Positions 5,470-47,576 of a stretch of 64,000 nt of DNA are shown here, one piece after another. Source of the stretch: Tubulanus polymorphus (taxonomy: Eukaryota; Animalia; Nemertea); assembly GCF_964204645.1 (NCBI RefSeq), contig NC_134033.1, positions 9,556,655-9,620,654 on the forward strand, given 5' to 3'. The number at the start of each line of letters is the position of its first letter. The stretch's first letter is position 1. The translations under genes were made by a program, and so were the position numbers. The notes under the pieces were generated by a model, which made no database searches, was not told the origin of the DNA, and was given only the letters and a program-made list of their open reading frames with translations.

Positions 5470-5501
5470 AATTTTAACTATAATAAAAATATATATAATA
5501 A

Positions 5502-8552: not shown

Positions 8553-8558
8553 CTTATT

Positions 8559-8927: not shown

Positions 8928-8932
8928 TTATT

Positions 8933-10649: not shown

Positions 10650-10957
10650 TTATATTAGAGAAAAAAGCGAAAAAAATATAAGTATTATAAAATGATACCA
10701 GTATCTCTTTAGATTAATACTAGCTTAGTTAAAGGTAAAGAATTTTAGTATTAGTTATTGTTTTTTTAGTATTTTTTATTTGTGATATAAAGTATTCTCT
10801 TTTGGAAAGAATTGTAAAAGAAAATATCAAAAATTAAAATAGAAATAATGGCTAGTTGAAGTTATTGTTTTTTTAATATATTTTATTTGAATTCTATTTG
10901 ATATCTCACTACTTTTGTTTATCTATTAGGAGCAGTAATTATAACTGTCCAGATAAG

Positions 10958-11569
10958 TCATTTCGGATCCTTGATATCAAATTCCTCAACGTATTGTTCA
11001 TTATTTGGATCATTGTTCCATTGATCAATAAATTTCTTTGCCTTTGTTAACTGTTCTAAATATAACTGTAAATCTAGTTTATTAGATTTGATTTGATTTT
11101 CTTTCTTTTCTAAAGGCCTTAAATTTTTCCAACCCCAAATAAGTTTTTTATTGTATTCATCATTCATGTTAAATTTAGATATTGGTAACACGTGATCAAT
11201 ATGGTAATAATCCCCGTAATTATCTATATTCATTTTATCATCGAATTGAAATATAATCCATGATTTGAGAAATTCATTTGAACAACCCAATAGATTAGAT
11301 AATGTTTCTGAATGTGTTTCTTTGTTGAATAATTGTGTTAATCTAGATCTTAAGCATTGTTTCAATCTAAAATTAAGATCTGTTTGATATCTTTCTCTCA
11401 TATATTCTGCCATATAATAATTAAAATGTTCTATATTATCTTCTCGGTATTGTTTGGTATATAGTTTAAAACAAGTTTTACAGCAATATTGAAAACCATC
11501 TTTGCTAATCTTACGCTTACTAAATTCTGTTAAAGCTAATTTATCTAATTCACATTTAGAACACTTCTT
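10958..11569 (-). pseudogene. HNH endonuclease, 3' part (copy A); the 5' end lies at 36945-37012
   Basis: HIDHVLP..NLRPL..EN..KSNK motif. The N-terminus MEPEQPQTINIT is found on the far side of the CACTA element and matches 43355 onward. Confidence 0.9.
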
Positions 11570-12879
11570 CCCAAGTAGCGCTGTGATGTCAGAATGACAT
11601 CATAATTACGTCATACCTTGATGTCAGGATGGCATCATATCATGATGTCAAATTGATATCAGAGTTGCTCATAGGAATGATGTCATATTAATGTCATATC
11701 ATGATGTTATTCTGACGTCTTTTTGATCCAAAATGATGTCAATATGACATTGATTTTGATGATCAGAAATACGTCATTTTGATGTCCCTTTTTAAATCAT
11801 TTAATTGATGAAAATATGACATCATTCCGACGTTCCATTTGCAACCATTGATTTATTGATTCCACTTATCCAAACAAAATCCTTAAAAGGTGTGAATCCT
11901 CAGTAATTGAGCCCACTCATTAAAAACTACTGAAAAGAATCTTATGGTGAATTAAGGTAAATCGTAGGCTTAATAGCACATTTTATTTTTTTTTACAAAA
12001 AATTAAGGCGATGGAATAAGAAATAATCCCGTCATCAAAAAGTGAACATATTCGTGTACATGGATTCTACAGTTATAGAATTATTGCTGATTTTTCGATA
12101 CTTAGCCATTTACATTTCGATACAGCTTACAGCTTTACAGTTACAGTTATTTTAAAATGAATATCTCTTTAGATTATACATACGTTACAAGGTTAAAAAT
12201 TGTTGTACTAACCTCTACTCTTTTCAAAGTATCTAAAAAAATAACAAATTTTTTATTCACTTAAATCTAAACCCTGCTCTCTTGTAAGCTACGTCTTCAA
12301 TTTCATAAACTGTACATAAATATATTGACTCAGTTTATACATAATATTTTATTCACAACATTATTTTTTAAAGACTTTACTACATATTTGCTCCTTCATC
12401 AGTCAAATTATGCGAGAAATTCCACATTCCGAACAAAAATTGATTAGTCCTATTATCAGAATTACTTTGGTATATTAATCAAACTCCCAAGTTACTTATG
12501 CCCAAAAAGGAGATGACATTTATGGATTTCAATTCTACTGTTAACTCCACGTATCTTGAATCAAAGAACTCGGAAAACCGAATTAGTCGGACTAATTTAC
12601 AATACTTTCAGAAGCAATACATGTACAAATATTAATTCAACATTTACGGTTACTTGGCATATTCGTCTGACAAAAAAATGGCGGTCCTGAAAGATTTGAT
12701 TTAAAGCGTAGTCTACTAACCTGACGTTAATTAGATATGAAAATGACAAATGTTCTACGGGTTAAATCGAAGAAACATCCTCATTGGTCCGATCAAATGA
12801 TCATTATAACTGGTTGAAATTCATAGAATACAACTGTAGATAAAAGAAAACCTTTCAACTACATACACATCGAGAATAC

Positions 12880-13544: not shown

Positions 13545-14343
13545 CTAATTATTGATGTCGATCTCCTGCAGTGCGTTGTTTCTTTTGGCGCTCGCCTTTA
13601 CGCGGTCTGGGGCGTATCTCAGCCAGTCCTTCATTGATATCGATCCTGGTGTGCTGGTTTCCACCGCGCTGTACTGTATCTGAATCGAAAGAAATTTTGT
13701 TCATACATCTGTTCAATAAAATATATGAATAAAAGAATCGGGAAAAACAGAACTACATACCTATAATGACCTTGGAAAGCCTTGTCGAGTTAAAGGCTGT
13801 TTTCGGAGCTTTCCCCAGCCAGTTGAATTCTGCTGCTAGTTTGTTGGAAAGCAGGGTCTTCATAATTGACTTTGTGGAATCTTTAGTCGTTTGCGCAGAA
13901 TACAAACTAAGGTACCCTATCTAGAACATAAAAAGATTGGTTTACACATAGGTTTATTTCTTCATTTCTAAGCAGCTCCAACGTTAATACAGAACCTTGA
14001 ATTTTATGATAATAATCACTTACCAGCCCTTCTCTGATAACCTGGTCGCCAAGTCTCCCCTCAAGCCTATCGAATTGCGTTTTCTCATCAAGAGGTAGAT
14101 CTATGTCGTCCGGTAATTTGGCTACTTCCGTTCGGTCCTGTTTTGTCAGCCTAGCGAGTGCCTTACTTTGGCGCTTTTGTTCTGATTTTACTTCGACCAA
14201 AAGCTCCAAAATTTTATCAAGTTTCCTTTCTAAAAGAAATAAGTATTTGTAAAAATGTAATGGATTTGATCGGAGTTTGATCAGTCAAATGAGAAATTAT
14301 CTGCATACTTACCAACTGATACAGAACTTGTACTGGTATCAAC
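13545..14343 (-). pseudogene. CACTA accessory gene (DUF4806-like), 3' exons
   Basis: Spliced pieces LPDDIDLPLD..LEGRL, IMKTLLSNKLAAEFNWLG and KDWLRYAPDR; continues the exon interrupted by copy B. Confidence 0.65.
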
Positions 14344-14806
14344 AGTAATAGGGATAATAGGCTTTCAGGCCAAAGGTCGAACGGTCGAGCTCGTAAAAAA
14401 TGAAAAACATAAAAATAATAACAATTTCTACTTGAATTACTCGCGAAACTCATAAAAATGAAAAATAAATTCTCACACGCTCGAATTTATTTTTCATTTT
14501 TATGAGTTTCACTCCTAATTCAAGTAGAAATTGTAATTATTTTTATGTTTTTCATTTTTACTCACCCGCCCGTTCAACCTTTAGCCTGAAAGCCTATTAT
14601 CCCTATTACTCTTAAAATATTCATATATATATGAATAACATTTAAATCATTGAACTTCTAAAATCAATTTTAATAAAAAATATAGTATTAAAATGGAAGC
14701 AAATAAGTACTACTGCCCAACATGTAATATCGATATAGACAAGTCTCAAAAAGCAAGACACAATAAAACTAGAACACATTTAGAGAATAAATTGAAACTA
14801 GAATAT
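14344..14806 (+). repeat. Left TIR of copy B (463 bp), including a fold-back hairpin at 14344-14610 and the first 38 codons of polB
   Basis: Reverse complement of 31974-32436; no mismatches noticed by eye. Confidence 0.95.
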
Positions 14807-17800
14807 AAGGATGATATATTAGAAACTAAATTAGAAGAATTAAAGAATGAAAAAGAAACATACAAATGTGATACATGTAATCAATTATTCAGTGATAAAA
14901 GATATTATAAAGAACATTTAAAATCTATAAGTCATATTAGAAATAAGAATAATGATATTTTAGGTGAAGATTATTTTGATAATGATAACGATAAGAAACA
15001 GAAGACAATTAAAAGAATAAAAAATAAATTAAACAATAAAAGACCATACATGGAAGATGTAAGAAATTATATTAATTCATTAGATAATAAAAAATATATA
15101 GAGATAACCGAAGCATTTAAAAGTGATATTGGTCCAGCAGCTATCGAGTTTAAATTTCATAAAGGAAAAACATTAGAAGAAAATAAAAAACATTTAGAAA
15201 ATATGAAAGAAATAATAAAAATAATTACAGATGTTGAATATCCTAAAATTAGTATATCAGTTAAAGTAAAGTTTATAAAATCTGAAGATAAACCAATATA
15301 TAATATAAATTCTCATTCACAACATATTATATCTAAACAACATATAGATGATAAATTAAATAAATGTTATAATGAAATAAAAACTAAAATAGAAGAGAAA
15401 TATTTTGAAGGATCTGGTTTAATATTTGATGAAATAATATTTATAACTTTACATGTTTATAACACAAAATATAATAAGTTAACTAAATCAAAACCAATTG
15501 ATGAAAATAATTTATCATATTATAAAGATGATAGTATAAATGGAACAAGTTATATTAAATTACCATTTAAAACTAATGGTGTAATAAATATACAAAATGA
15601 AGATGATAAATGTTTTCTATGGGCTATAATAAGTTGTTTACATCCAGTTGAAGATTATAATAAACATACTTATAGATTAACTCATTATAAACAATTTGAA
15701 AATAATTATAAGATAGATAAGTATCCTGTTAGAATTAAAAATATTCCAAAAATAGAAAGAGATAATAATCTTAAAATAAATGTATTTGATTTAATTAAAT
15801 TACCAAATACAAAAGGAAATAATATTAAACATTATACATTAGAACCTTTATACCTATCAAAAGATAATGATTCAAATAATGTTATAGATATACTATATTA
15901 TGAGAATCATTATATGTGGATTAAACAAATCGATTTATTTTTTAGAACAGAAAGTGATCACCATAATAAAATATATCTATGTAGAAAATGTTTACATAGA
16001 TTCAGTAATGAAAGTACATTATTAAATCATAAACAACTATGTGATAATCATGATTATTGTAAATTAGTTTTACCAAATGAAAAAGATAAAATATTAGAAT
16101 TCAAAAAATATGATTACAAAAATAAAGTACCATTTGTAATATATGGAGATTTTGAATCATTAAATAAAGAATTAACAGATAAAGATAGAAAAGATATATA
16201 TTATAAAAGAAAGAAATTAAATTCTAATGAAAGTGATTATTCAGAAGAACCACCAAAAACAAATACAATTAAAAAGATTGATCAATCAGCTGCAGCTTTC
16301 GGGTTATATATAAAATCTGATTATCCAGAACTAATTGAAAGTGAATATTATCATTATAGAAATGAAAATGTTATTAATCATTTTTGTGACTTATTAATTG
16401 AATATGAAATAAGATTTAGTAAATTATTGAATACAAATAAAGAAATAATTATGACAGAAGAAGATTTGCGTTTGCAGATAAATGTTATTATTGTGAAAAA
16501 CTATTTAATTATAAAGATAAAAGAGTAAGAGACCATGATCATTTGAATGGTAAATTTAGAGGCGCTGCACATGAGGTTTGCAATTTACAAGCCAAAAAAG
16601 TAAATTTTGTCCCCATTATATTTCACAATTTATCGGGGTATGACGCGAATTTATTCATTAAGCAACTGTGTCATAAAATAGAAGAAATTAATAATGAAAT
16701 AGAAATATTAAATTCAAATAAATCAAAAGATAAAATACCAACTTATAAATTTAGAATGTTAGCTAAAACATCTGAGAATTATATATCATTCCAATTTGGT
16801 TGTCTAAGATTTATAGATTCATATAGATTTTTAAATAGTTCATTAGATAACTTATCAAAATCATTAATTGATGATGAATTAAAGATATTAAAAGAATATT
16901 ACCCAAATTATGATGATTTTAAATTAATGAGATATAAAGGTGCAATTCCATATTCTTTCTATAAAAATCATAATGATTTTAAAATAACTGAATTATTGAA
17001 AGAACAATTCTATGATGAATTAAAAAATGAATATGTTAAAGATGTAGTATATAATAGAACATTGAATATTTGGAATCATTTCGAAATTAAAAATCATGGA
17101 CAATTAGTAGATTTATATTTAAAATCAGATGTATTATTATTAACCGATATATTCGAAAGGTTTAGAGATGTAAACCTAAAATATTTTAATATTGATCCTT
17201 GTCATTGTTATTCATCACCAGGATTAACATGGGATTGTGGATTAAAATTTACAAATATAAAAATGGATTTGTTAACAAATATAGATCAATTACTATTATT
17301 TGAAAAATCTATAAGAGGAGGTGTTTCAGGTGTATTAGGTGATAGATATTTCAATGTAAATGATAATCCTGGATATAAATTATTATACATAGATGCAAAT
17401 AATCTTTATGGTTGGGCAATGATGGAACCACAACCTTATGGGATGTTTGAAATAACTGAAGTTTTACAAATTGATAAATTTGATTGGAAGAAAAGAATCC
17501 TAGATATTGCAGATGATTCAGATACTGGTTACTTCTTTGTTGTAGATTTAGAATACCCTGAAAATATTAAATTTAAATCTAGAAATCTAGCATATTGTCC
17601 CGAACATAAAACTGTTAAACATGAAGAATTATCAAATTATCAAAAAAGAATTAAACCCGATAATCATATTCATACAGAAAAGTTAATGGTAACTCAAGAA
17701 GATAAATATAATTATGTAGTACATTATAGAATGTTGAAGTTCTAAAAAAAGTACATAGATATATTTCATTTAATCAATCTAAGTGGTTAGAAAAATATAT

Positions 17801-18695
17801 AGATTTTAATACTACACAGAGAACTGAAGCTAAAACTGATTTTGAGAAGGATTACTTTAAACTAATGAACAATGCGTTCTATGGAAAAACATGTGAAAAC
17901 ATAAGAAATAGAAATGATATTGAGTTAGTTAGTAATGGTAAAAGAATTAGACATTTGCAATCATATCCGAAATTCAAAGGTAATAGAATATTCGATGAAA
18001 ATTTAGCTGCAGTTAAATTAAAAAGAACTTCTATGAAGTTCAATAAACCTATTTATGTTGGAGCTGCAGTTTTAGAAATTTCAAAGCTATTGATGTATGA
18101 ATTCTATTATAATGTATTGCAACCCCATTTTGGGGAAAAACATATAGAAATCTTATATCTAGATACAGATTCTTACATATTAAAGATAAAAAGTGATAAC
18201 ATAACAAAAGACTTAAAAATATTAAAACACCATTTTGATTTCAGTAACTATCCAAAAAATCATGAATTGTTTAGCAATGATAATAAAAAAGTTCCCGGTA
18301 AATTCAAAGATGAATTAGGTGGTGAAGAAATGATAGAGTTCATAGGTATTAGATCTAAAATGTATTCATATAAAACTAAAGAACATGAAGCTAAAAAGTT
18401 AAAAGGAATAACCAAAAATGTAGTAGAAAAGAATATTCATTTTAAAGATTACATCAATTGTATATTTAATGAAGAAGTTAGAAAACATAAAATGAAATGT
18501 TTAAGATCTGAAGATCATGAAATGTATATTGAAGAGATAGAGAAGATAAGTCTAAACCCATTTGATGATAAAAGATATATTTTAGATGATGGAATCCACA
18601 CAGTCGCCTATGGTTGCAATTTAGATGAATATATAAAATTCAAAAGAGAAGAAACAAAAGAAAATGAGATTATGAAAAGGATTCTAACGTGTTAA
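14693..18695 (+). pseudogene. polB: Protein-primed family B DNA polymerase (copy B), broken by two small deletions
   Basis: Exonuclease motifs YGDFES and FHNLSGYD; polymerase motifs YIDANNLYG, K.MNNAFYGK and YLDTDS; N-terminal zinc fingers; EndoVII-like CYYC..RDHDH..G..H..CN insert. Deletions near 16465 and 17740 relative to copy C. Confidence 0.97.
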
Positions 18696-18723
18696 TAAAT
18701 TTCAATAAAAATTTGTATAATAA

Positions 18724-19065
18724 ATGGAGAGTAAACAAGTACACAGTGAATTCTTAGATAGAATTAAAGATACCACAAATGTAAAATCTGTAGATTATAA
18801 ATTCAAAAAACTAACTGAGTTAACAATTCACAAGAAATATTTAATTACAAATATTGTTACAGTTACTAACAAATATGGAGATAAATTAGTTATACACTTA
18901 GAATATGAAGGATTAAAAGGAAATACACATAAATTCAGAACTTATTTACCAGATAGATTTCATAGATTATCAAGTGAAGATCTAGAAGAATTATGTTCTG
19001 GAGATTTCTATTTCGTATACAAAGGTAAGAATGAAAAAGGGCACCACGATATTGATTTTGAATGA
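18724..19065 (+). CDS. Small conserved protein, possibly OB-fold nucleic-acid binding
   Basis: Conserved in B, C and D next to polB; pattern FKKL.EL....KY.I......NKYG..L...L....YLPDRF. The fold is an inference. Confidence 0.6.
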   Translation: MESKQVHSEFLDRIKDTTNVKSVDYKFKKLTELTIHKKYLITNIVTVTNKYGDKLVIHLEYEGLKGNTHKFRTYLPDRFHRLSSEDLEELCSGDFYFVYKGKNEKGHHDIDFE

Positions 19066-19080
19066 AAATATGTAAAATAA

Positions 19081-19840
19081 ATGGCGGAATTAAAAGAATA
19101 CAGAATATTTGTTGATTCTAGAAAACTTACAAATTATAAATCTCATAATTTATTAGTACAATTAGATAGAGAATTCAAGAATTGTGTAGATTTAAAATTA
19201 GTAAATATAAGTTTATGTAATTCTTTTTATAATATATCGAATAAAACTATTGAACATAATACTTTTTTAATTCATATTAGAAATATAAATAAATGGTTTC
19301 ATCTATTTCTAAGACCAGGATTATATAATTTAGAAACATTATCTCAAGAAATTAATCGTAGAGCACGGTTGAAAATTAGAAAAGATGATAAATTTTTAAT
19401 AAGATTTATAAAAAGTGATAGCTCAAATAGAATTAAAATAAAGATATTTGATGAAAGTCAACATGCATTTATGGTAAAAAAAACCTATAGCTAAATTGCT
19501 AGGAATTGAACCAGATGTTGTTACAGTAAACGTAGAAGGTATTTCAAATATAATACCTTTTACACATTTTTATATTTATTGCAATTTAATTGACCCAACA
19601 AAAACATTTGAAGCAACTAAAGATACAACATGTAATTCTAGTATATTAAATATTTTACCATTAAAAAATGTTAAAGAATTTGGAACGCAAATAAATTATA
19701 ATTTAACAGAATGTGATTTCAAACCATGCATTCCTCATTTTAATAATTTTAGATTAGAAATTAGAAATCATAATGGATACTTAATTGATTTAAATAATTT
19801 CCCTGTAATTTATGAATTAGTTATAAGATGTAAAGAGTAA
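19081..19840 (+). pseudogene. Minor capsid (penton-like single jelly-roll) protein, one frameshift near 19480
   Basis: IFVDSR, SFYNI, PGLYN, YIYCNLI and IDLNNFP motifs typical of Polinton/PLV minor capsid proteins; homolog at 52068..52822. Confidence 0.8.
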
Positions 19841-19856
19841 TTTTTTTATTATATAA

Positions 19857-20198
19857 ATGAATATAACTGTTGGACCGAGTATATGTTTTGGGTTTGATTT
19901 TAAACATGGTAAAGAAATGAGAATTAAACTAAATGATGTAATTACTGATATAAAAAGTAAATCATTTAACAATGCATCAATGATTGATAAAGAAAAGTAT
20001 AATATAGAAAAAGTAATTGATTTAATTAAATCACCTTTAGAATATTATGAATTAAATGAAGATGGAATTATTGAAGATATCAAAAACATATTATCCAAAA
20101 TATATGATAATCATAAAAGTAGTAATGAAATAAATGTTGAATTAATCATAAATAAGTTAACTAAATATTTTGATGATAGTAATTTTTTTGATAAATAA
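19857..20198 (+). CDS. Hypothetical Polinton protein (113 aa)
   Basis: Homolog in copy C (51719..52051); TAAATG start. Confidence 0.7.
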   Translation: MNITVGPSICFGFDFKHGKEMRIKLNDVITDIKSKSFNNASMIDKEKYNIEKVIDLIKSPLEYYELNEDGIIEDIKNILSKIYDNHKSSNEINVELIINKLTKYFDDSNFFDK

Positions 20199-20420
20199 AT
20201 GAGTGGTAATAAGTGGATAATAACTTGATTATATAATGGCGCATTATTATCAGTTGGAACTGTTGGTTATTCAATGGTATTAAAAAAAGTATTCAAAATG
20301 GGAAGTGTTAATGTTGATAGATTTGATATCAATGATATTCTAAAATTAACATTAGCAGTTACTTTATCTAATTTAACTATTGATTATTTAGAAAAACAAA
20401 AATATATTCCTCCCATATAA
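20199..20420 (+). pseudogene. Small hydrophobic 73-aa protein with an internal TGA (copy B)
   Basis: Intact homolog at 51472..51693 in copy C. Confidence 0.75.
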
Positions 20421-20445
20421 ATGCATAATTTTTTTTGCTAAATAA

Positions 20446-20868
20446 ATGGCTTCTGCAATTATAACTATTATAGGATCAGCAATTGTTAACGCTTTAGCAT
20501 TTACTGGTGGTGGTTATTTATTTAAACATATTGATAAAAATAGTTCATTAGGAGAACAAAGAAGACATAACTTAGCGTTAGAGAAATACAATAAAGCTGC
20601 AGAAGAATATAGAGAAAAGAGACAAAACTATATGGATTACATCAATAAAGAATTATATGATCAGAAGATTTCACATAGAGATTTTCAATCAGTTGATGAT
20701 GCAATGAGTTTATATAACACAGTAACCAATAAAGAAAAATTACATCTATACAAACCTAAATTATCAGATTATTATACCCCAAGTAAAGAACAACAGAAAT
20801 ATGAAATAATTTGGATTTTAGGTGGAACTGTTATTGTTATATTTGTAGCGTATAAGTTTACTAATTAG
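20446..20868 (+). CDS. Putative membrane protein (hydrophobic N- and C-termini, central coiled coil)
   Basis: MASAIITIIGSAIVNALAFTGGGYLF and IIWILGGTVIVIFVAY; homolog in copy C. Confidence 0.8.
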   Translation: MASAIITIIGSAIVNALAFTGGGYLFKHIDKNSSLGEQRRHNLALEKYNKAAEEYREKRQNYMDYINKELYDQKISHRDFQSVDDAMSLYNTVTNKEKLHLYKPKLSDYYTPSKEQQKYEIIWILGGTVIVIFVAYKFTN

Positions 20869-20887
20869 TAATTTTTTTTCTAAATAA

Positions 20888-21322
20888 ATGGAAGATAAAG
20901 TTGATAGTATTGATATTATTCCTCATGATATAAATAAAACTAAATTAAAAATATATTTAGAAAAACAAATATTAGAATTTGAAAGTGACTTAAAGATAAA
21001 AAAGAAAAAATATTTAAAAAGTAAAATTATATATTATTTGATTATAAGTGGTTCGGTTACAATTAGTTCTGTAATAACATTTCTAGCAATATTCAGTCCA
21101 TTAACACCTTTAGCTATATCAATTGGTGTATTAGGATTAAGTTCAAGTGTTTTAACTGGTATAAGTTCAAAATTAAATATAAAAAGTAATAAAGAAAAAA
21201 TAAAATCTAATATAAAAGAAATTAATAAATTAAAGAATACACTAGATTATATAATAAGTTTAAATGGTCATATAACAGTTGAAGAACAAGATAAATTATT
21301 AAAAGAATTAATAAATTATTAA
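20888..21322 (+). CDS. Two-TM hairpin membrane protein flanked by coiled coils
   Basis: About 45-aa hydrophobic stretch IIYYLIISG...VLTGI; homolog in copy C. Confidence 0.8.
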   Translation: MEDKVDSIDIIPHDINKTKLKIYLEKQILEFESDLKIKKKKYLKSKIIYYLIISGSVTISSVITFLAIFSPLTPLAISIGVLGLSSSVLTGISSKLNIKSNKEKIKSNIKEINKLKNTLDYIISLNGHITVEEQDKLLKELINY

Positions 21323-21338
21323 TTTTTTAGTTATATAA

Positions 21339-22721
21339 ATGGGGTTTCCAAAAGCTTTCCGATATAATAAATCAATTAAATATAATATTCCAGCAATAGA
21401 TTTTAATAAAGATATTACATATAGAAATGAAGTTTTAGATTCATTAACTAATTTAGAAATTTATGTTACTGAAACTAATAATTTTAATGCAAAGATGGAA
21501 AATATATTTCATGTATATTTAATTAATTTTAAAAAATTGAAATATGAAAAACAATGGTTATTAAAATCTAATATGAAGTATTGGCAGAATCAATTAAATT
21601 TTGCTGTTTATTGTGCAACAACAGGATGTGGAATAAGTTGGAATGATCATTTGAATAATTCTAAATATAAATTAATTCAAAGTTTATTTAGATTTCATAC
21701 ATACTTTCAAATCAGAATAATATTAAATGAATTAGAGTGTGCTTTACCAGGATCTAGGTATTTCAAAGAATTGGATAATAATATTAATTTATCAAAGTTT
21801 TATAAAATTTGCAATGAATTTAATATAGATATAAATAATTCTGATTTTAGAACAAAAATTGGAACAATAAGATCACTTCCTTGCCCTAAAAAGATTGCAG
21901 AATATTGTGCACTTCCCATACCATCTAATAGTTTTTATAATATCTATAATAAAAAATTAGGTTATGGTAAAATAGAAACAAAGGATTTAGAAACATTAAA
22001 TTTCAATAAATTACCAAAATTTTATGATAATTTAAAACAAGAAAACAATAATGGTTGGGTTTATTTTATTTTAGAAAATAGTGAAGGTTTTACTAAATCA
22101 GGTATAGAAAGAATAAATCAATCTATTAGAACTTATTTGATTTGTATTCTAGGATCACAAGTTGAAACAAGATCACCGATAATAGGAAATTTAAATACAT
22201 CATTTGATACACAAAAACAATTTAAAGTTTTATTTGAAGATTCCATACATAATGATAAAAATAGATCGATTCCAGAAAACATTATAAGATATCAAAATTA
22301 TTTAGATAAATCTCATGTAAGACTTAATTATTGTATAGGCCCTAATCTATTAATTATTTCTAATGATTTAGTATTAAAGATGGGAAACATAATTGGTTAT
22401 AATAATCTAACTAAAACCGCAACAATAAATAATTCATTTGGATTGAATGATATAAATAAAAAGATTATTACTGCTCCAAAATTAATGGAAGGTGAAAAAA
22501 ATAAAAAACACATTCAATCAACAGAAACTAAAACTAAGAATATTAAATTAAATAATGATTCTAAAATAAAAGATTACAATACTACAGAAAATAATAGAAC
22601 TGATAAAATTCAACATGATATAATTAAACTAAATGATGATAATAAATCCCATGAAAATACTAAATTAGCTATAACTTGTATAGGAATTGTAATCGGAGGA
22701 ATATTATATTTTAAATTTTAA
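21339..22721 (+). CDS. 460-aa conserved protein with C-terminal membrane anchor (putative virion protein)
   Basis: Intact ORF; WQNQLNFAVYCATTGCGIS motif; present in A, B and C; ends in LAITCIGIVIGGILYF. Confidence 0.8.
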   Translation: MGFPKAFRYNKSIKYNIPAIDFNKDITYRNEVLDSLTNLEIYVTETNNFNAKMENIFHVYLINFKKLKYEKQWLLKSNMKYWQNQLNFAVYCATTGCGISWNDHLNNSKYKLIQSLFRFHTYFQIRIILNELECALPGSRYFKELDNNINLSKFYKICNEFNIDINNSDFRTKIGTIRSLPCPKKIAEYCALPIPSNSFYNIYNKKLGYGKIETKDLETLNFNKLPKFYDNLKQENNNGWVYFILENSEGFTKSGIERINQSIRTYLICILGSQVETRSPIIGNLNTSFDTQKQFKVLFEDSIHNDKNRSIPENIIRYQNYLDKSHVRLNYCIGPNLLIISNDLVLKMGNIIGYNNLTKTATINNSFGLNDINKKIITAPKLMEGEKNKKHIQSTETKTKNIKLNNDSKIKDYNTTENNRTDKIQHDIIKLNDDNKSHENTKLAITCIGIVIGGILYFKF

Positions 22722-22737
22722 TTTTTTTATTATGTAA

Positions 22738-24430
22738 ATGGATGTAGAAGGTGGAGAAGATATTCCATTGGATGACATGGGAAATAATAATGAAGGATAT
22801 ATTGATAATGATTATAATGATGCAGAACCTAATATTGATAATGATGATGAATCAGCATATAATACTAATTTAGGTGAAGATGATGATTATGATGATGATG
22901 ATGATCCCGAATTACGTGAAAAATTAAATAAATATTTAGAAGCTCCTGAAAGGGGTAGAATTTCAACTAGAAGAGAAAGAAAAGAATTAATGGAACTATT
23001 AGAAAAACAACAAGAAAAATATCCTGATGAACCTATGGAATTATATTAAATGAAATCTAGAGTAACAGATACAATTGTTAACGAATTATTACCATCAGAT
23101 GTAACAGATGAAATTGATACTGAAGGTGTTGTAGAACAAATTTTTAAAGATGACCCATATTTCACAAATAATTTAGAATTTAAAAATGATGCATGGTATT
23201 ATAATCTTGATTTAAATAGGAATATTGTAACAATTCAATTATCTAAAATGGGTCAAGAAAATATTTTTGAACCTGAAATGCGAGCAAGATCTACAATTGA
23301 AAATTCAAAAGGTGGTAGAGAATTTCTCAGAATTATATGGAATGCAATCGATAGAATAAATGAAAAAGAACCAATTCCTAATATTGATATAAACAAATAT
23401 TCACCATTTAAAAATCCAAATCCTACTGATTTTGATCCAGAAATGGAAGAGAATAGAAATCGATTAGATAGATTGAGATCTTCAACACCCGAAACATCGA
23501 GAAGAGACACTCAACAAATTGATAATTATTCAAGTGAATTACAATTAGAAAAACAAATTGATAGATTAAGAGATTCAGAAGAACTAATGAATAGTATATC
23601 AGATACATCTGGTTCTGAAACTGGAATAAATCGACTGCAATATTTACTAGAAAAAGGATTTCTTAATTTAACTGATGAAGAATTAGAAGCATTTCCTGAA
23701 CAAATACGTAGAGAAATTAAAGGTATACAAGTATCAGCTGATGAAATTGCTAATATTAAGATGAGATTTTCTAAAATAACCATGTTAGAAAAAGAATTAG
23801 TTAATGTAGATGAAGAATTAAAACAATTAGATTTAAATAGAAATCATCAATTAAGCTGATTTTGAAAGCAGAAAGTTAGCTTTAGTAAAAGAAATAGATG
23901 ATTTAGAATATAACATAAAATTACAAAAAGAAGAAAGAGATATATTATTAAAATCATATGATCTTAATCATATTAAAAAATTAAAAGTTATTTTTAAAGA
24001 TTTGTTGATTAAACCAGATTCTGAAATATCATTAAAAGACAGAATAAAATTGTTATTTAAATTAGAAGGAATAACAATTCTTTCAATTCTAACAGGTGTA
24101 ACTATGGTATTTACAACAATTGGTTTAGCAATATCAAATGCTTTAAAATCTACTCCCACTCCCAATAAACCAGATAAACCTCCAGGAAATAATTCTATAC
24201 AAGATAAAGTTAAAGATGGTTTAAAGAAATTAGCAAAATATTTATGGGAACTATCTAAAAAATCTGCTGCAGCTTTACCAGGAGTTATTGCTTCAATTGT
24301 TGGTTTTATATTGAAATCTGCTGGGAATATTCTTAACTTTGCTGCTGAACATATTATTTTATTTTTAATTACAGTTGTAAGTGCTATTATTTTTGGGTTA
24401 GTGAATATGATATCAAAAAATATCAAGTAA
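22738..24430 (+). pseudogene. Large acidic/coiled-coil protein with C-terminal multi-helix membrane domain (copy B; stops at about 23047 and 23857)
   Basis: Same-strand consecutive fragments; the C-terminal 142 aa are nearly identical in A and C. Confidence 0.8.
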
Positions 24431-24484
24431 ACCATGATATCAAAAAATATCAAAAAATAAATAATTAATTTTTTTGTTAAATAA

Positions 24485-25722
24485 ATGAGTGGGAGTTATA
24501 TCAATCCTTCTAAGAATCATAGAATATCTAATGCTATTAAAGCAGAAAGATCACATCATATAACCCTTCAAATATTAATCCCGATGAAACTTTATACGTT
24601 AGAATTCCTAGATTAACACAAAATACTTTTTATGTACCAAATAGTATTTATTTATCAGCTGATATAAAAGTAATCGGTAATAATAATAATTATGTCGTTG
24701 ATAATGTTGGAAGATATTTGATTAAAAAGTTAACAATAAAGATTGGTCCAGAAACAGTTTTCTCATTAGATGATTATAATTTATTTATGCATTATAAAGA
24801 TTTATGGTTAACTAAAGAAAACAGAAATAATATGATATTTCAAGGAATTCAATCAGAAAACCAAAATAAATTAAGATCAGAAGCTAATAGCGCAATATTA
24901 ACAAATGATGTAGATAAATTGATAAAAAGTATATATGGAAGCAAATATAAAATTCCATTAGACTTTGAATTGATAAATAATAATGCACCTTTATATAAAT
25001 ACGCAATTCAAGAAGATATTATATTTGAGATAACATTTGCTCCTGTAAATGAAATTGTATTATCTAGCGTTAATAAAGATATGAGTTATAAATTATCGAA
25101 TATATGTTTAGAATATGATACAGTAACTGATGAAAATATTTCAAGTATAATTCAAACTAAATACAATCAAGGGTTTTCATTATTATATGATTATATTGAT
25201 AAATTTAAAACTGTAACTATTAATGCAAATGATGAAATAATAAATGAGAATATTAACTTTCCTAGAAGATCTATTAAAGGTATATTAATATTTTTTACCA
25301 TTGGAACGTATACTAATGGCGCAATAAATGTTGATAATTATTATAATCCTGAAATAACAAAAGTAGAAATAACTATCGAAGGAATAGCAAATAAAATATT
25401 TTGTCAAGGAATGAGAATGATTGATCAATGGCCAGAAATTAGAAAACATTTTATGAATGAAAAAGTAAAATCATTTGAAAATTGTAACATTAATCAAATT
25501 GATTATTATACCGGTAATAAATTTGCATTATGGTTAGATTTTAGAACAACTGAAGATAATTCATTACATGGTTCTGGAAAAAAATTACAAAATACAAAAG
25601 ATGGAATACAATTATTCATGAAAAAGAAAAAGGGAATTAAAAATTTTAAAATGCACATTTATATTATATCTGACGCGCAATTAAATATTGTAAATTCACA
25701 ATTAGATAGTGTTATGTATTAA
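24485..25722 (+). pseudogene. Major capsid protein (putative double jelly-roll), one frameshift near 24562 (copy B)
   Basis: Start MSGSYINPS at 24485 as in copy C; the 334-aa ORF is the C-terminal part. Confidence 0.8.
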
Positions 25723-25754
25723 AATTTTAACTTTAATAAAAATATATATAATAA

Positions 25755-26714
25755 ATGGAAGGAGGTAAAGTATATAAACATATTCCATACATCGATACAC
25801 ATGAAAATAATGATGGTTTATATTATGTAATACCTTGTAATATAGCTTTGATATTTGATCCTATTTTTAAAAATTATAAAACTAAACTAATAGAAATCGA
25901 TAATAATAAAAGTGAAGTTGTTGATAATTTAAGTAATGTAATTGATGATAATGTAATACCTTCTACATCTAATAACGTAATACCTTCTACATCTAATAAT
26001 GTAATACCTTCTACATCTAATAACATAATACCTTCTACATCTGTAATACCCTCTACATCTAATAATGTAATACCTTCTACATCTAATAATACAATAATAT
26101 TAAATGTTAGTGAAAATAGAAATTATTGTGGTTATTGTAATGGTGAGTTTTCAAACGCTCCATCAAATTGGAATAAACATATGAATACAAATTCACATAT
26201 TACTAATGTTATAGAACGTGTTGGCAAAAAAGAATTTATAGAACACCCATTTAGATATGTTACAAAATTTGTTTCAAATAAAAAAGTAAATGGTGAAAAA
26301 ATATATGAAGATTTATTATTAGCAACACCTAATAAAGATGAATTAGATTTAACCGATGCTAATGAAATATTAGGATCAAACACTGTAAATGAAATATTAG
26401 GATCAAACACTAATAAAGATGATAATGATAATGATGCCATAAAGCACCCACATGATAATATAGTTACAGATAAACATATTGATAATAAAGATTCTATAAA
26501 ACTTAAAGTAGAAAATAATGATAAATTTGATTGGATCAATAAGCTTAACAATAAAACAACTATTGATGATTTAGTAAAAAATGTGAAAAAGGTGAAAAAG
26601 GTGAAAAAAAATTATAAAGATGTTGATGTAGATTCGGTAGAGCATTTAAATATGTTGTTAGAGCCGTCTGATAGTGAAAGTGATTCAGAAATTGATTATC
26701 TAAAACTTGAATAA
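25755..26714 (+). CDS. Repeat-containing zinc-finger protein (copy B)
   Basis: (NNVIPSTS)n, CGYC..HMNTNSH and an acidic tail. Confidence 0.75.
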   Translation: MEGGKVYKHIPYIDTHENNDGLYYVIPCNIALIFDPIFKNYKTKLIEIDNNKSEVVDNLSNVIDDNVIPSTSNNVIPSTSNNVIPSTSNNIIPSTSVIPSTSNNVIPSTSNNTIILNVSENRNYCGYCNGEFSNAPSNWNKHMNTNSHITNVIERVGKKEFIEHPFRYVTKFVSNKKVNGEKIYEDLLLATPNKDELDLTDANEILGSNTVNEILGSNTNKDDNDNDAIKHPHDNIVTDKHIDNKDSIKLKVENNDKFDWINKLNNKTTIDDLVKNVKKVKKVKKNYKDVDVDSVEHLNMLLEPSDSESDSEIDYLKLE

Positions 26715-26784
26715 TAAAGGTTAAAAATTGTATAAAATAATAGTAAATAAAAAAGGGGTTTAAATTATTTAAGGTATCTAATAA

Positions 26785-26880
26785 GGTATCAGGTATTAGG
26801 GTATCAGGTATTGGGGTATCAGGTATTAGGGTATCAGGTATTAGGGTATCAGGTATTGGGGTATCAGGTATTAGGGTATC
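26785..26880. repeat. 15-bp tandem repeat (gtatcaggtattagg)n between convergent gene blocks
   Basis: About 6.5 copies directly visible. Confidence 0.9.
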
Positions 26881-26902
26881 TAATACATAGGTATACAAAT
26901 AG

Positions 26903-27229
26903 TTATTTTATAAATTTATATTCATAAGGAAATTGTAATCTCATTAATAATTTTGAACCTTTATTATTTTTTAATTTATTTATATATTCATCATGTAATT
27001 CAGTAGGTATAATTTGATTTTCTTCCAATGATTGTTGCATAGATTTTCTATCTTTGTTGTAGAATAAAACTAGAAATCTTATATTCTCTCTAAAATCTTT
27101 AACAATTGAATTATATTTCTGATTTAAAACCCAAGTTGTTATCCCAAAATGTCTACCAGAGAAAGCTAAATAACATAACTCACTTTCTCTAATTTTAGAA
27201 TCATGTAAATTTGCGCAATCATCAATAAT
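26903..27229 (-). pseudogene. Packaging ATPase C-terminal half (copy B); Walker A half deleted
   Basis: IDDCANL..GRH..VLNQ retained; fused to the integrase tail through a filler sequence. Confidence 0.9.
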
Positions 27230-27258
27230 TTGTTGATTATTCTGTATTCTATTTGTAG

Positions 27259-28226
27259 CTATTTTGTATTCTATTTCATCTGGATTTGGTACTAATGATA
27301 ATTCTTGTTCATAAAAATAACCTAATATTTCTTCATCTTTTAAATCAAACAATTTATAAACAAATGGTTTAGTTAATATTATCTTTTTAATTTTAAATAT
27401 TTCTTCAGTAAAAATTGGGGGTTTAACCTTTATAAAATGTTTTTCGATATTTAGAAATTCTAACATGTTGTCCTATTTTAAATTTAGGTTCTCCAAAATC
27501 ATGTGTAACAAATGCTCCATATAAATTATTCCAAACTATTTCTGAATTATCTTCTTTTCTAGCTTGTATAGGTTTCATATTTATAGAACTATGTTTAGAA
27601 TTATTATAACCTTTAACTAAATCATCTAACACATCGATATATTTATATGTTTCATTAGCAGTAAAATATTTCCACATTCTAGTTTTCAATGTTTTATTAA
27701 ATCTTTCTATAATAGATGCTTTTTTATCTGAGTGTGTGGAAAAATAATCTACATCGTTATCAGATAATAGTTTTTTAAAATGTTTGTTATAAAATTCTTT
27801 ACCTTCATCAAATTGTATCTTATCTGGGATAGCTTCTTTAAATATTAATTTGAAAGAATTTGTAACTTCTATACCGGTTTTATTTTTAATCGGGATACTC
27901 CATGCGTATCTACTGAATATGTCTATAACATTTAATATCCAGAAATGTCCTTTGTTGTGTTTTTCTAAGTTCTTCATGTCAATTAAATCAGCTTGCCATT
28001 GTTGGTCAATATATGAAACCATTACTTTTCTTGTTAAATATTTTTTATCCATCTTTTTATGAATTTGATATGTGGGTTGATTTTGTAACCATGATTTTAA
28101 TTCACTATATTTTATATCACTATTATCGGATTTAATTTTATTCCATAATTCTGAAACGTTAGAATATGATACTTCACTTTCTGGGTTGTAATATAACGCT
28201 CTTAAATATTGTTCTTTTTTCATCAT
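27259..28226 (-). pseudogene. Integrase (copy B); catalytic core intact, frameshift near 27420, chromodomain deleted
   Basis: DDE motifs as in copy A. Confidence 0.92.
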
Positions 28227-28229
28227 ATT

Positions 28230-28574
28230 TTAATCCATTAATAATATTTTAGATTTAGTTTCATTTGACTTATTTTCTGGTATAATAGGTTTATCATCAT
28301 TGGAATAATATTTATCATCAGATTTGAATTTTGATTTATATATTACACCGGATAATATAATAACTGTTACTAATCCAATTGTAATATATAATTTATAATT
28401 ACTTCCAGCATTAGAAGAATTAGATGGATTATTATTTGAATCAATATCAGATTCATTTATATCAGTTAATTTCTTTTTCTTAGCTTTTTTTAATTCTGAA
28501 GATTTTTTACCTAATTCTCTTGCCCATTTAATTTGTTTCTCGGATCTAGCCTTTTTCTTAACTCCATCACTCAT
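28230..28574 (-). CDS. Small basic single-TM protein (copy B)
   Basis: Homolog of 8559..8927. Confidence 0.75.
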   Translation of the reverse strand: MSDGVKKKARSEKQIKWARELGKKSSELKKAKKKKLTDINESDIDSNNNPSNSSNAGSNYKLYITIGLVTVIILSGVIYKSKFKSDDKYYSNDDKPIIPENKSNETKSKILLMD

Positions 28575-28579
28575 TTATT

Positions 28580-29167
28580 TTAGTTAATTTTTGTTGATTC
28601 ATTTTCTGTTTCGACGTTTTGTTGTAGTACATCTGTTTCGTTCTTACCTGATTTATATTCCATAGGTTTGATGTTCGAAAATGTTATAACTCCAGTAGAA
28701 ATCAATGTCATAACCGATCCTAATTGAAATGAAGCATATCCAACCCATTTTTGTAATTCAGTCATAACTAAATAGTCATTTTTCAAATCATTATATAATT
28801 TATTTTCATCATCAATTGGTATTAACTGGTTACATAACTTAGAATAACATTTGACAATACCATCACTTATAGAGTCGTTTATTCTAGCTAATCTTGCCTC
28901 TTCATAAATCTTAAAATATTTTATTACTTTATCGGGTTTCATAGAGTCTAGTTCTTGAAAAGTTATTATTTTTCCTAAGAAGTCCTTAGATTTCCCGCCA
29001 GCAATTAATAATTCAAGATGATGCTTACAATATAAATAGTATTCATAATCTATATTGTTATTAACTTGAGCACAATTAGTTGCAACTGTATCTTTATTAT
29101 CACTTATACCCAAATCATCTAATGTCTTTTCAATATCAATACTATTCTTATTAGATTTCTTTGACAT
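28580..29167 (-). CDS. Conserved 195-aa Polinton protein with a hydrophobic C-terminal segment
   Basis: Intact ORF; homolog split in copy A. Confidence 0.8.
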   Translation of the reverse strand: MSKKSNKNSIDIEKTLDDLGISDNKDTVATNCAQVNNNIDYEYYLYCKHHLELLIAGGKSKDFLGKIITFQELDSMKPDKVIKYFKIYEEARLARINDSISDGIVKCYSKLCNQLIPIDDENKLYNDLKNDYLVMTELQKWVGYASFQLGSVMTLISTGVITFSNIKPMEYKSGKNETDVLQQNVETENESTKIN

Positions 29168-29574
29168 TTATATTAGAGAAAAAAAGCAAAAAAAATATTA
29201 TAAGTATTCTTCAAATGATACTAGATAGTTAAAGTTAAAGAATTCTAGTATTGACTACTGATACTAGCTATTTGAATTTAAAGAATTTCTATTTGAATCT
29301 ATTCAAAATATAAAGTATTCTTTTTGAAAAGAAAGTATTAAAAATATAATAGAATTCACTAGCTAGTTGAAGTTATTGTTTTTTTATTATATTTTATTTG
29401 AATTAGGATTTAATATCTCACTACTATTGTCTATCTATTAGGAGCAGTAATTATAACTGTCCAGATAAGTCATTTCGGATTCTCGATATCAAATCCTCAA
29501 CTGAAAATCAACTCAACGAAACGACTGGTGGAAATATTAATTTATAAACACATATATTTATTATGTAAATTTTA

Positions 29575-29930
29575 GCGATCGATAATAGAACAATGGAGAA
29601 CAATAGAAATGCGGTCCAATCGGACCGGTTATTGCGCAATACACAGTTATATTTTTATTCTGTAAACTACAACATTCAAACATAGAACTGTAACCAATCA
29701 ATATTGAGCAGCTGTTTCAGTCAACAACGATCAATAGTAGAACAATGGAGAACAATAGAAATGCGGTCCAATCGGACCGGTTATTGCGCAACACTTAGTT
29801 AACAGTAAACAATCAATACAGAACAACCGCCGCCATTAACAACGATCAATAGTAGAACAATGGAGAACAATAGAAAAGCGGTTCAATCGGACCGGTTATT
29901 ACGCAATACACAGTTAACAGTAAACAATAC
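29575..29930. repeat. Three copies of an about 65-bp motif containing the hairpin cggtcc-aatc-ggaccg
   Basis: agaacaatggagaacaatagaaatgcggtccaatcggaccggttattgcgcaa at about 29587, 29739 and 29853. Confidence 0.9.
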
Positions 29931-29996
29931 AATATTAAAACAGATATATACAATCGAGATTACATTTTTGATATCTAAGACCTTCAGTATTATAAT

Positions 29997-30725
29997 TTAT
30001 AATTTTGTCCAGAATTCTTTAATTACTGGATTGTTTCCAATCATTTCTTCAATTTCTGGTAAATGTCTTACTACTTCACTAAATGCTAATCCTAATATTT
30101 TGAATTTTTCATATTTTATTAATCTACCTACTCTTCTCAGTTTTCTTTCAAAACCGGCACTGATATCTATGTTCTTTTTAACCCACAGTCCCCAAGAAAT
30201 CCCCTCAGTTTCTTTATCAAACATTGAAAACCCTATATTTAGATAACCCCCGAAAATGATGTGGTCCCATAGGTGATTTGCTTTTCTATTTAATATGGTT
30301 TTATAACTTTTTTTTAAGATATCAGTAATTTCAGCAAATGAAATAACTTCTACACTTTGTATTTCCGGAAAGTTTAAATGTCCTGTGTCAATGATTAATT
30401 TAGATTTTAAAAACTCGTTCAACTCTTCTCCACTCATTTTCTTAGTTTTCGATTCTTTGAGCCCCAACAGCAATTTGAGTCGCGTTGCTGGTAATTTTGG
30501 TAATTGTAGTTCGCGCGGTAATTGTTTATTATGTATTACATCACTCAGAATTTTCACCATTTCTTGATGATAGTCCAAATGTTCTTGTAATGTTTGTGAA
30601 GTTTGTTCGTCAATTACGAGAGTTTCATCCTCCATTTCTATTGATTCCTGAGTTTCACTATCCAGTAGCAATCGTTCCTCATCCGTTGGTTGGCTTAGAA
30701 TTTCTGGTTGATCTTTGTGTTCCAT
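29997..30725 (-). CDS. Accessory protein, 242 aa: acidic N-terminus and helical C-terminal domain (possible DNA binding)
   Basis: Intact ORF only in B; a remnant of its upstream region and 5' end is present in C at about 42420-42690. Confidence 0.65.
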   Translation of the reverse strand: MEHKDQPEILSQPTDEERLLLDSETQESIEMEDETLVIDEQTSQTLQEHLDYHQEMVKILSDVIHNKQLPRELQLPKLPATRLKLLLGLKESKTKKMSGEELNEFLKSKLIIDTGHLNFPEIQSVEVISFAEITDILKKSYKTILNRKANHLWDHIIFGGYLNIGFSMFDKETEGISWGLWVKKNIDISAGFERKLRRVGRLIKYEKFKILGLAFSEVVRHLPEIEEMIGNNPVIKEFWTKL

Positions 30726-31073
30726 TTTAATCTAAAAGATATCGTGAAAATGAATTACTATACTTAAATATGTTTAAAGGTTTCCCTACTTCATAATAAC
30801 TACAAAAAACGGTACTTACATTTAGATTTAGAACTGTAAACTGTGTTTTGAGAGAGAATATCCAATACGTACTATGTATGTGAAAGTTGATTTCTAACTG
30901 CCGACGTGGCGCACGTTCGACCAAACTAATTACTTCTGCACAGATGTTCTTTATGATGAAGTTAATTAATTCTTTAGAATTGAAAACAAGATATATTTGG
31001 CAACATATGTTTTAGTAGTAAGCAAAAGCTATGTATTATATACATACAAAGCTCAAATAGAATTACCAGCTTT

Positions 31074-31757
31074 CTAACCACTGATCAAAACCTCAGAATG
31101 CGGTTGATTCTGTGAAATACTATTCCATAATTCAACAAATGTCTTTGCTTTATCCAGTTGATCTAAATATAACTGTAAATCTAGTTTATTGGATTTAATA
31201 ATGTTTTCCTTCTTTTCTAAAGGTCTTAGATTCTTCCAATTCCAAATAAGTTTTTTATTGTATTCATCATTCATGTCAAATTTAGAAATCGGCAACACAT
31301 GATCAATATGAAAGTATTCACCATAATTATCTATATTCATTTTATCGTCGAATTGATATATTATCCATGATTTGAGAAATTCATCTGAACAACCCAACAA
31401 ATTAGATAGTGTTTCTGAATGTGTTTCTTTGTTGAATAATTGTGATACTTTAGATCTCAAACATTGTTTTAATCTAAAATTAAAATCTGTTTGATATCTT
31501 TCTTTATGATAATTTCTATTATACACTTTAATATATTCTAAATGATTTTCTTTCCATTGCTTATTTTTATCTTTGCGTGTTTCAGTATTATTTTTATAAT
31601 TTTGTTTATCACTTAGTTTACTACAAGTTTTACAATAACTTTGCTTACCATCTTTCTGAGTTTTATAATTATAATATTCCGAGAGTTGTTTTTTTATTTT
31701 ACATTTAGAACATTTCTTATTGTTTATATTTATAGCTTGTGATTGTTCCGGCTCCAT
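31074..31757 (-). CDS. HNH endonuclease with N-terminal CxxC..CxxC zinc ribbon (copy B, intact)
   Basis: KKCSKC..YCKTC and FHIDHVLP..NLRPL..ENIIKSNK. Confidence 0.88.
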   Translation of the reverse strand: MEPEQSQAININNKKCSKCKIKKQLSEYYNYKTQKDGKQSYCKTCSKLSDKQNYKNNTETRKDKNKQWKENHLEYIKVYNRNYHKERYQTDFNFRLKQCLRSKVSQLFNKETHSETLSNLLGCSDEFLKSWIIYQFDDKMNIDNYGEYFHIDHVLPISKFDMNDEYNKKLIWNWKNLRPLEKKENIIKSNKLDLQLYLDQLDKAKTFVELWNSISQNQPHSEVLISG

Positions 31758-31793
31758 TTATTATACATATTTTTATTAAAATTGATTAACATT

Positions 31794-32087
31794 TTAGAAT
31801 CCTCTTCCATTTCTTCGACCAACGTCATCCTTTTTCATTCCTCGCTGCTTTTGATAAGTCAGTTTCGATTCCTTGATATCAAATTCCTCAACGTATTGTT
31901 CATTATTTGGATCATTATTCCATAATTCAATAAATTTCTTTCCCTTTGTTAACTGTTCTGAATATAACTGTAAATATTCTAGTTTCAATTTATTCTCTAA
32001 ATGTGTTCTAGTTTTATTGTGTCTTGCTTTTTGAGACTTGTCTATATCGATATTACATGTTGGGCAGTAGTACTTATTTGCTTCCAT
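31794..32087 (-). CDS. Chimeric ORF: polB N-terminal 38 aa (from the TIR) fused to an HNH C-terminal tail
   Basis: MEANKYY...LKLEY joined to LQLYSEQLTK..WNNDPNNEQYVEEFDIK. Confidence 0.6.
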   Translation of the reverse strand: MEANKYYCPTCNIDIDKSQKARHNKTRTHLENKLKLEYLQLYSEQLTKGKKFIELWNNDPNNEQYVEEFDIKESKLTYQKQRGMKKDDVGRRNGRGF

Positions 32088-32436
32088 TTTAATACTATAT
32101 TTTTTATTAAAATTGATTTTAGAAGTTCAATGATTTAAATGTTATTCATATATATATGAATATTTTAAGAGTAATAGGGATAATAGGCTTTCAGGCTAAA
32201 GGTTGAACGGGCGGGTGAGTAAAAATGAAAAACATAAAAATAATTACAATTTCTACTTGAATTAGGAGTGAAACTCATAAAAATGAAAAATAAATTCGAG
32301 CGTGTGAGAATTTATTTTTCATTTTTATGAGTTTCGCGAGTAATTCAAGTAGAAATTGTTATTATTTTTATGTTTTTCATTTTTTACGAGCTCGACCGTT
32401 CGACCTTTGGCCTGAAAGCCTATTATCCCTATTACT
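31974..32436 (-). repeat. Right TIR of copy B
   Basis: Reverse complement of 14344-14806. Confidence 0.95.
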
Positions 32437-44002: not shown

Positions 44003-44010
44003 GGAATTAA

Positions 44011-44748: not shown

Positions 44749-44788
44749 TTATTTAACAAAAAAATTAATTATTTATTTTTTATCATGT

Positions 44789-46222: not shown

Positions 46223-46239
46223 TTACATAATAAAAAAAA

Positions 46240-47565: not shown

Positions 47566-47576
47566 TTATATAATTA

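Follow-up and report, generated by a model that had tools for sequence, protein, structure and literature searches.

Mavericks or Polintons ('adintoviruses', PMC8502044; Polintoviricetes) are elements of animals, about 18 kb long, that carry a protein-primed DNA polymerase B (pPolB), an rve integrase, an A32 ATPase and a double jelly-roll capsid protein, bounded by terminal inverted repeats (TIRs) and a target-site duplication (TSD). The transcription of animal Mavericks, and their autonomy or dependence on a helper, is the question taken up here. The words 'promoter' and 'helper' do not occur in the available text of PMC8502044 and PMC11131425, and the portions available of PMC11071308 and 10.1101/2024.03.23.586382 hold no promoter analysis. 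Here we analyse a 64-kb stretch of nemertean DNA (the window, meaning the whole stretch) with four such copies, A to D, and centre on copy B (14344..32436, no strand assigned; 18,093 bp). By its pPolB, rve integrase, A32 ATPase, double jelly-roll capsid, TIRs and TSD, copy B is a Maverick/Polinton. It differs from the described members in that a protease was not recognised and in a clade-specific signal at its gene starts that is likely a promoter of poxvirus type. We propose, with a probability of about 0.6, that its genes would be read during co-infection by the RNA polymerase of a pox-like virus, a putative helper. By gene content the element is a Maverick and probably not a lavidavirus, and 'virophage-like' serves here as a label for the inferred lifestyle alone.

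A precedent for such dependence is the mavirus provirophage of the protist Cafeteria, an integrated element with pPolB and an integrase that shares the late promoter of the large virus CroV and is activated by this helper (10.1101/068312). There the motif is TCTA, and activation and protection are known from experiment; here the host is an animal, the motif is of pox type and the evidence is sequence. Entomopoxvirus-associated Polinton-like viruses of moths (Barth et al. 2024, PMC11296320) are likewise small preplasmiviricots for which parasitism of a poxvirus, again in an animal host, has been proposed. They are about 12 kb long, occur in moth-virus occlusion bodies, carry a protease and have no rve integrase, and the main text of that report mentions neither promoters nor TAAAT. 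With its rve integrase and 18 kb the nemertean element falls outside that class (tyrosine recombinase or no integrase, about 12 kb); the evidence for it lies in promoters and includes no physical association with a virus. Poxvirus hyperparasites are a known category already. No report of a TAAATG promoter in any Polinton was found among the matches listed in the literature search, with subscription journals and supplements outside it.

In the late promoter of vaccinia virus, TAAAT and a following G overlap the start codon, and weaker Ts surround a conserved T at the 10th nucleotide upstream (PMC11980589); the T-containing core lies 5-7 bp from TAAAT (PMC5294985). TAAATG is also cited as a late start in an insect poxvirus (PMC3061580) and a fish poxvirus (PMC4542343), and the late motifs described for African swine fever virus (ASFV), mimivirus and CroV are unlike it (PMC7163114, PMC5294985). 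The yeast linear plasmids pGKL1/2, as described in PMC6211774, resemble the element in being AT-rich, protein-primed and TIR-bounded and in using a TAAA-type initiator; they differ in having their own polymerase, no capsid or integrase, and an early-type upstream element.

Thirteen of the 16 gene starts of copy B read TAAATG, against 47 of 691 non-start ATGs (Fisher p=1.5e-12). An earlier sequence-only reading had given this count, and all 13 positions that it listed were borne out, as were its exceptions: the polB start (14693) and that of a 242-amino-acid (aa) open reading frame (ORF; 30725) read TAAAATG, and the integrase (28226) starts with TAAAATATG, without the motif. A TAAATG at 23050 sits within a broken gene and was excluded from the start count. 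AT-matched shuffling, which that reading had named as a check, agrees: TAA precedes ATG in 6.1% of 10,901 first-ATG ORFs from 100 dinucleotide shuffles, and in 2 of 37 host-flank ORFs of at least 40 aa. The motif is kept, as had been stated, in copy A (1906..11600, plus strand, partial and decayed; 6/7 checked starts) and copy C (41475..57915, minus strand, inverted, decayed and interrupted, with the 6-bp TSD CTTGTG; 9/10). For copy D (59980..64000, plus strand, partial, ending at the window edge) both starts had been credited with it; one of the two checked is exact, and polB reads TAAAATG, the same as in copy B. The view that the motif is more than stop-start overlap also stood, as stop-to-next-start spacers in copy B span 0-54 nucleotides (nt) over 13 junctions (two stop coordinates approximate). 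Because of these spacers, the TAA of the motif is usually a second TAA rather than the upstream stop.

To follow the motif beyond the window, a metagenome scan with a capsid alignment yielded 25 loci (L001-L025). Before counting, L002 and L014 were set aside as nearly the same as L003 and L013, and L021-L025 as decayed loci with weak matches; antisense ORFs and ATGs lying inside broken genes were left out too. The capsid tree does not include L016 and L017; L016 was counted outside (46% capsid identity) and L017 inside (59%) the window's capsid clade. Within that clade, window included, 64 of 74 hand-chosen starts read TAAATG, compared with 1 of 15 outside. All 15 starts of L001 carry the motif, and the integrase start is TAAATG in both L001 and L003. 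The motif-bearing loci group together in a quick maximum-likelihood capsid tree (SH-aLRT 90) and form four sub-lineages; the window capsid is 52-56% identical to those of the other sub-lineages. TAAATG at gene starts is a trait of one capsid clade, and it is kept in clade loci of 40-44% GC, where TAA precedes 2-5% of all ATGs.

Several features of the relatives may be noted in passing. Deoxynucleoside kinase genes occur in clade members (L001:10343-10981, L006:2898-3380; fused to polB in P0153), with none seen in copy B, and the related polB P0151 has an intein with a homing-endonuclease domain (PF14890, PF14528, precomputed). Outside the clade, head-to-head starts at L019:1837-1875 show a TAAAAATG variant with a similar upstream T-run, possibly a related initiator. 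No relatives of the capsid, ATPase or polB were found in IMG/VR, and none in GTDB. The capsid or polB relatives P0011, P0127-P0134, P0080 and P0150 are filed as Bartonella, Thiodiazotropha or Sulfurimonas on short or unplaced records, and these bacterial labels are probably assembly contamination.

The initiator is accompanied by a second conserved feature. T stands at -12 in 13/13 TAAATG starts of copy B but at 19/47 non-start TAAATG sites, and in the clade at 61/64 motif starts versus 42/121 non-start sites. In ATG-aligned starts T-12 is the single outstanding upstream position; among clade motif starts T is found at -13 in 48/64 and A at -18 in 77%, the longest T-run ends between -9 and -12 in 33/64, and upstream of -20 no position has a single base above 62%. 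The element thus has TAAAT plus G over the start, and an upstream T, among weaker Ts, that matches the published wording for poxviruses within one base. What differs from vaccinia (PMC11980589, PMC5294985) is that the signal lies in a nuclear-integrated element without a recognised polymerase, where it is known from sequence alone. Judged by this architecture, the two-part signal (T-12 and TAAATG) likely works as a late promoter of poxvirus type. A split into A-rich, intermediate-like and T-rich, late-like promoters is visible; it is unrelated to gene function, all starts keep T-12, and we do not claim it.

Head-to-head genes provide a sharper test of simpler explanations. Six such pairs, with 19, 24, 28, 28, 30 and 72 nt between their ATGs, carry TAAATG and T-12 at 12/12 starts. 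It is very improbable that TAAATG is a translation signal, whether as an in-frame stop that protects the start codon or through coupling of stop and restart on a polycistronic RNA. TAA is indeed a stop codon and copy B has one true abutment (20198/20199), but spacers separate the genes at 12/13 junctions, the triplet is always TAA and almost never TAG or TGA, the motif stands at all 12 head-to-head starts, and a fixed T-12 is unexpected for reinitiation. Hardly tenable at all is the reading of the motif as the AATAAA of an upstream gene overlapping the next start, or as AT-rich chance. Although 31/64 motif starts read AATAAATG, which contains AATAAA, and the element has only 24% GC, 33/64 lack AATAAA, no gene lies upstream of a head-to-head start, the ORFs themselves contain many AATAAA, loci of 40-44% GC still carry the motif, and its frequency departs from chance at p ~1e-12. 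Stop-start coupling and poly(A)-signal overlap are thus excluded as general explanations by the head-to-head genes and the relatives of 40-44% GC.

The bases around the ATG fit an initiator that is only partly transcribed. The Kozak rule asks for a purine at -3, and starts without the motif have one in 9/10 cases inside the clade and 11/14 outside. Motif starts have T at -3 while keeping G at +4 (45/64 versus 12/49 internal ATGs), as expected if the T is untranscribed and a slipped poly(A) leader provides the A at -3. Poly(A)-leader slippage is described in PMC6211774. Poly(A) signals were compared with expectations from synonymous-codon shuffles, as were T5NT motifs. Copy B ORFs show no avoidance of AATAAA, with 74 seen for 72.4 expected (5.1 per kb), and neither do 57 clade ORFs (155 seen, 164 expected), whereas 10 outside ORFs avoid it (4 seen, 11.4 expected). 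AT-rich cytoplasmic genes are fragmented by nuclear polyadenylation in yeast, according to PMC6211774. T5NT is depleted in clade ORFs (15 seen versus 40.3; T5 followed by other letters, 47 versus 63.5), and the case for T-runs as terminators is weak. Because the T-run keeps a fixed distance from the ATG, in head-to-head pairs too, we read it as promoter core.

These observations bear on the alternative that a host RNA polymerase II (Pol II) promoter, switched on by an element-encoded factor (the 242-aa helix-turn-helix (HTH)-like protein or an unrecognised TBP/TFIIB-like protein), drives the genes and no helper is required. We regard it as unlikely. A TATA-type box touching the ATG would, with its usual distance of about 30 nt, place the transcription start inside the ORF, and upstream of -20 no base exceeds 62% at any position. 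Divergent ATGs just 19-30 nt apart, T at -3 and about 5 undepleted AATAAA per kb in the coding strands likewise speak against it. In its favour, integration of the element takes place in the nucleus, VLTF3 can occur in coral polintoviruses, which are transcribed, as far as the available text of PMC11131425 goes, and one gene of copy B looks as if transcribed by the host.

That gene encodes the 242-aa protein (29997..30725, minus strand), which is all-helical and weakly HTH-like. It lacks the exact motif, its start being TAAAATG, and at 33% GC is richer in GC than the rest of the element. RefSeq models 74-97% identical to it exist in Tubulanus polymorphus; in XP_074657124.1 the first 198 residues are identical to the ORF, and the last 11 lie past a GT-AG intron (30131-29712). 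The identity of the 242-aa gene to its RefSeq model makes Tubulanus polymorphus the probable host. A candidate 5'-leader intron of 88 nt, GTAAGT...TTTTAG (30732..30819, minus strand), is conserved at its two ends in copy C. The donor shares bases with a TAAATG that has T-12 (30821) and is directly followed by a stop, so a promoter reading is possible as well. In the structure model the best DNA-binding rows reach Z 4.4-4.8 (weak), no Foldseek match has E<=0.001, and no TBP or TFIIB is among the rows listed, though a remote relation would still be possible. Against a Pol II factor of this kind, the model is all-helical, unlike TBP, and the protein is unmatched among the ORFs of L001-L025. The capsid search gave no match above 76% identity, so that the capsid, unlike the 242-aa gene, apparently has no RefSeq model; this fits silent structural genes, and repeat masking alone may explain it. 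Short contigs of run X9 (library type not on record) cover the 195-aa, 242-aa and HNH regions; none spans a start or any intron, and we draw no inference from them. X7 and X8 contigs gave short matches only, and X10 and X11 none. Downstream of the 242-aa gene lies a 115-nt repeat (29576-29934).

No Pfam match to an RNA polymerase subunit, TBP, TFIIB or VLTF was obtained among the ORFs and open frames of copy B, in L001 or in 37 frames from other loci; all unassigned genes of copy B are at most about 490 aa long. As far as these Pfam scans reach, the element appears to have no recognisable RNA polymerase gene, and it is for this reason that a helper polymerase is proposed. Under helper transcription, RNA synthesis would start inside the AAA of the motif, slip and add a short poly(A) leader, and the T at -3 would thus lie outside the mRNA. 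Reading of the genes would take place in the cytoplasmic factory of the helper, where internal AATAAA would be harmless. In the absence of the helper an integrated copy would be largely silent, like mavirus, and host Pol II would transcribe the spliced 242-aa HTH-like gene.

The polymerase need not come from a poxvirus, since TAAAN initiators also serve the polymerase of a yeast linear plasmid (PMC6211774). The source of a pox-like polymerase might be a linear plasmid resident in the cytoplasm, a different Maverick family or a large DNA virus other than a poxvirus; we consider this improbable. Yeast pGKL, with its TAAAN initiator, poly(A) leaders and own polymerase (PMC6211774), shows how such a supplier could look, and the TA-run variant with its T-run in L019, outside the clade, would fit it. 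However, it is for poxviruses that exact TAAATG with an upstream T has been described, the late motifs of ASFV, mimivirus and CroV differ, and no supplying element of this sort was seen within the 64-kb window.

Several further points weigh against transcription by a poxvirus-type helper. The 242-aa gene looks nuclear and spliced, so that, judged by sequence, the host probably reads one or more genes of the element; this keeps the Pol II alternative alive. No helper was found: scanning IMG/VR for the promoter pattern brought up 10 loci, all unrelated and each without the motif at the majority of its starts, and a literature search for nemertean and poxvirus brought no mention of nemerteans among the matches listed. 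A divergent TBP or TFIIB could escape Pfam, and our structure models cover two proteins. The 64 motif starts are not independent, coming from homologous genes and related loci and having been picked by hand, and the outside set is small; in copy B itself polB and the integrase lack the exact motif. The '10th nucleotide' of the vaccinia description corresponds to -12 when counted from the first A and to -13 when counted from the T, and the match was judged against the described poxvirus consensus, not against poxvirus sequence logos. A mid-GC subset of the clade is depleted in AATAAA (15 seen, 21.9 expected, P=0.04). T5NT in copy B (6 seen, 9.3 expected) is not significantly depleted, and A-runs are depleted too.

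Of the sequence-only reading, then, the animal host is upheld by the nemertean RefSeq match of the 242-aa gene. Its statement that all genes are intronless fails on that same gene, with its RefSeq-modelled GT-AG intron and candidate leader intron, and its view of the T-runs as terminators does not agree with their constant spacing from the ATG, which head-to-head pairs show as well. Its proposal of transcription by a helper virus keeps the promoter match (T-12, four sub-lineages, head-to-head pairs, pyrimidine at -3 with G at +4, AATAAA not avoided in copy B); on the other side, no helper was found, and one gene looks as if read by host Pol II and spliced.

The ends of copy B are those of an inserted Maverick. 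A 6-bp TSD and AG...CT ends are typical of Mavericks/Polintons, and copy B has AG...CT ends and the TSD ATCAAC (14338..14343, plus strand), repeated at 32437-32442. The left TIR (14344..14806, plus strand; 463 nt) holds the polB promoter and start, and the right TIR (31974..32436, minus strand), 100% complementary to it, carries a second polB start. An ORF in the right TIR (32087-31794, 97 aa) starts like polB, since the promoter and initial codons of polB lie within the TIR. The flanks are joined without the element (joint 14336->32436) in reads of run X6 and one X1 contig, showing that an empty allele of the site exists. Numerous loose-end reads at the termini (434 left; 579 and 492 right), with low agreement among them, point to many further insertion sites. 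Read depth is about 80-900 over copy B and about 45 in the flanks, which does not translate into a copy number. Both ends of copy B are imperfect palindromes (14344-14610 and 32170-32436; 267 nt, 87% self-complementary) with the terminal sequence repeated inside. Similar ones lie at 41475-41858 and 57507-57915, with a solitary one at 37241-37429; these terminal palindromes could form hairpin ends. All four copies are broken. Copies A (9110-10230) and C (47590-50590) are interrupted by unrelated inserted DNA that disrupts genes; in copy B, breaks affect polB, capsid, integrase, ATPase and a further three genes. Adjoining copy B outside is an intact 699-aa transposase-like ORF (33768-35867) with a weak DUF4218 match.

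On the plus strand, the pPolB gene (14693..18695; PF03175 E 2e-12) is split into three ORFs, while intact relatives are 81-83% identical to it. The plus-strand genes that follow all start with TAAATG and T-12. They begin with a 113-aa ORF of no assigned function (18724..19065), which has a homologue in L001, and a broken candidate minor capsid gene (19081..19840) whose assignment is weak (DUF5901 E 0.036, best PDB match E 0.12). Another 113-aa ORF (19857..20198) directly meets the broken homologue of a 75-aa gene (20199..20420) in the sole stop-start abutment. Next come a 140-aa ORF with hydrophobic ends (20446..20868), a 144-aa ORF with a weak SLATT-like two-helix membrane match (20888..21322), a conserved 460-aa ORF without a family match (21339..22721) and the broken homologue of a 485-aa gene (22738..24430). 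The double jelly-roll major capsid gene (24485..25722) is broken near its 5' end. The model of its relative P0002 (74% identical; pLDDT 91.9) matches an iridovirus capsid in Foldseek (E 9e-17, TM 0.63), and the mavirus capsid comes in 44th place (E 3e-11, TM 0.50), after those of iridovirus and PBCV-1; named sequence relatives of the capsid are bivalve-associated records. A 319-aa ORF (25755..26714) with a C2H2-like zinc finger and 24-nt repeats ends this block. A 15-nt tandem array (26785-26891) separates the two convergent gene blocks.

The minus strand holds the 3' half of the A32-type packaging ATPase (26903..27229), whose 5' half and start are deleted in copy B; the copy A ATPase (PF04665 E 2.3e-10) starts with TAAATG (7330). 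The broken rve integrase (27260..28226; PF00665 E 3.6e-9) has a counterpart with a chromodomain in copy A. A 114-aa ORF (28230..28574), a 195-aa ORF (28580..29167) and an HNH or endonuclease VII-like nuclease (31074..31757; phrog_1035 E 1.6e-15) all start with TAAATG and T-12. Among copy B proteins, of which several are unassigned, no Pfam, PHROG or NCBIfam match to an Ulp1/adenain-type cysteine protease was obtained.

A probable poxvirus-type late promoter carried by a whole clade makes the helper question of animal Mavericks testable. More tentatively, and with the odds somewhat against it, the entire clade may consist of integrated virophages of poxviruses, heritable and triggered by a pox-like virus of marine invertebrates as helper, with a small host-transcribed latency regulator and possibly the role of an inducible antiviral defence. 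If helper transcription is true, the provirophage lifestyle of mavirus would extend from protists to the animal germ line, and a pox-like virus of ribbon worms would be predicted. TAAATG with T-12, together with unavoided AATAAA, would then be a simple sequence test for sorting helper-read from host-read Maverick lineages.

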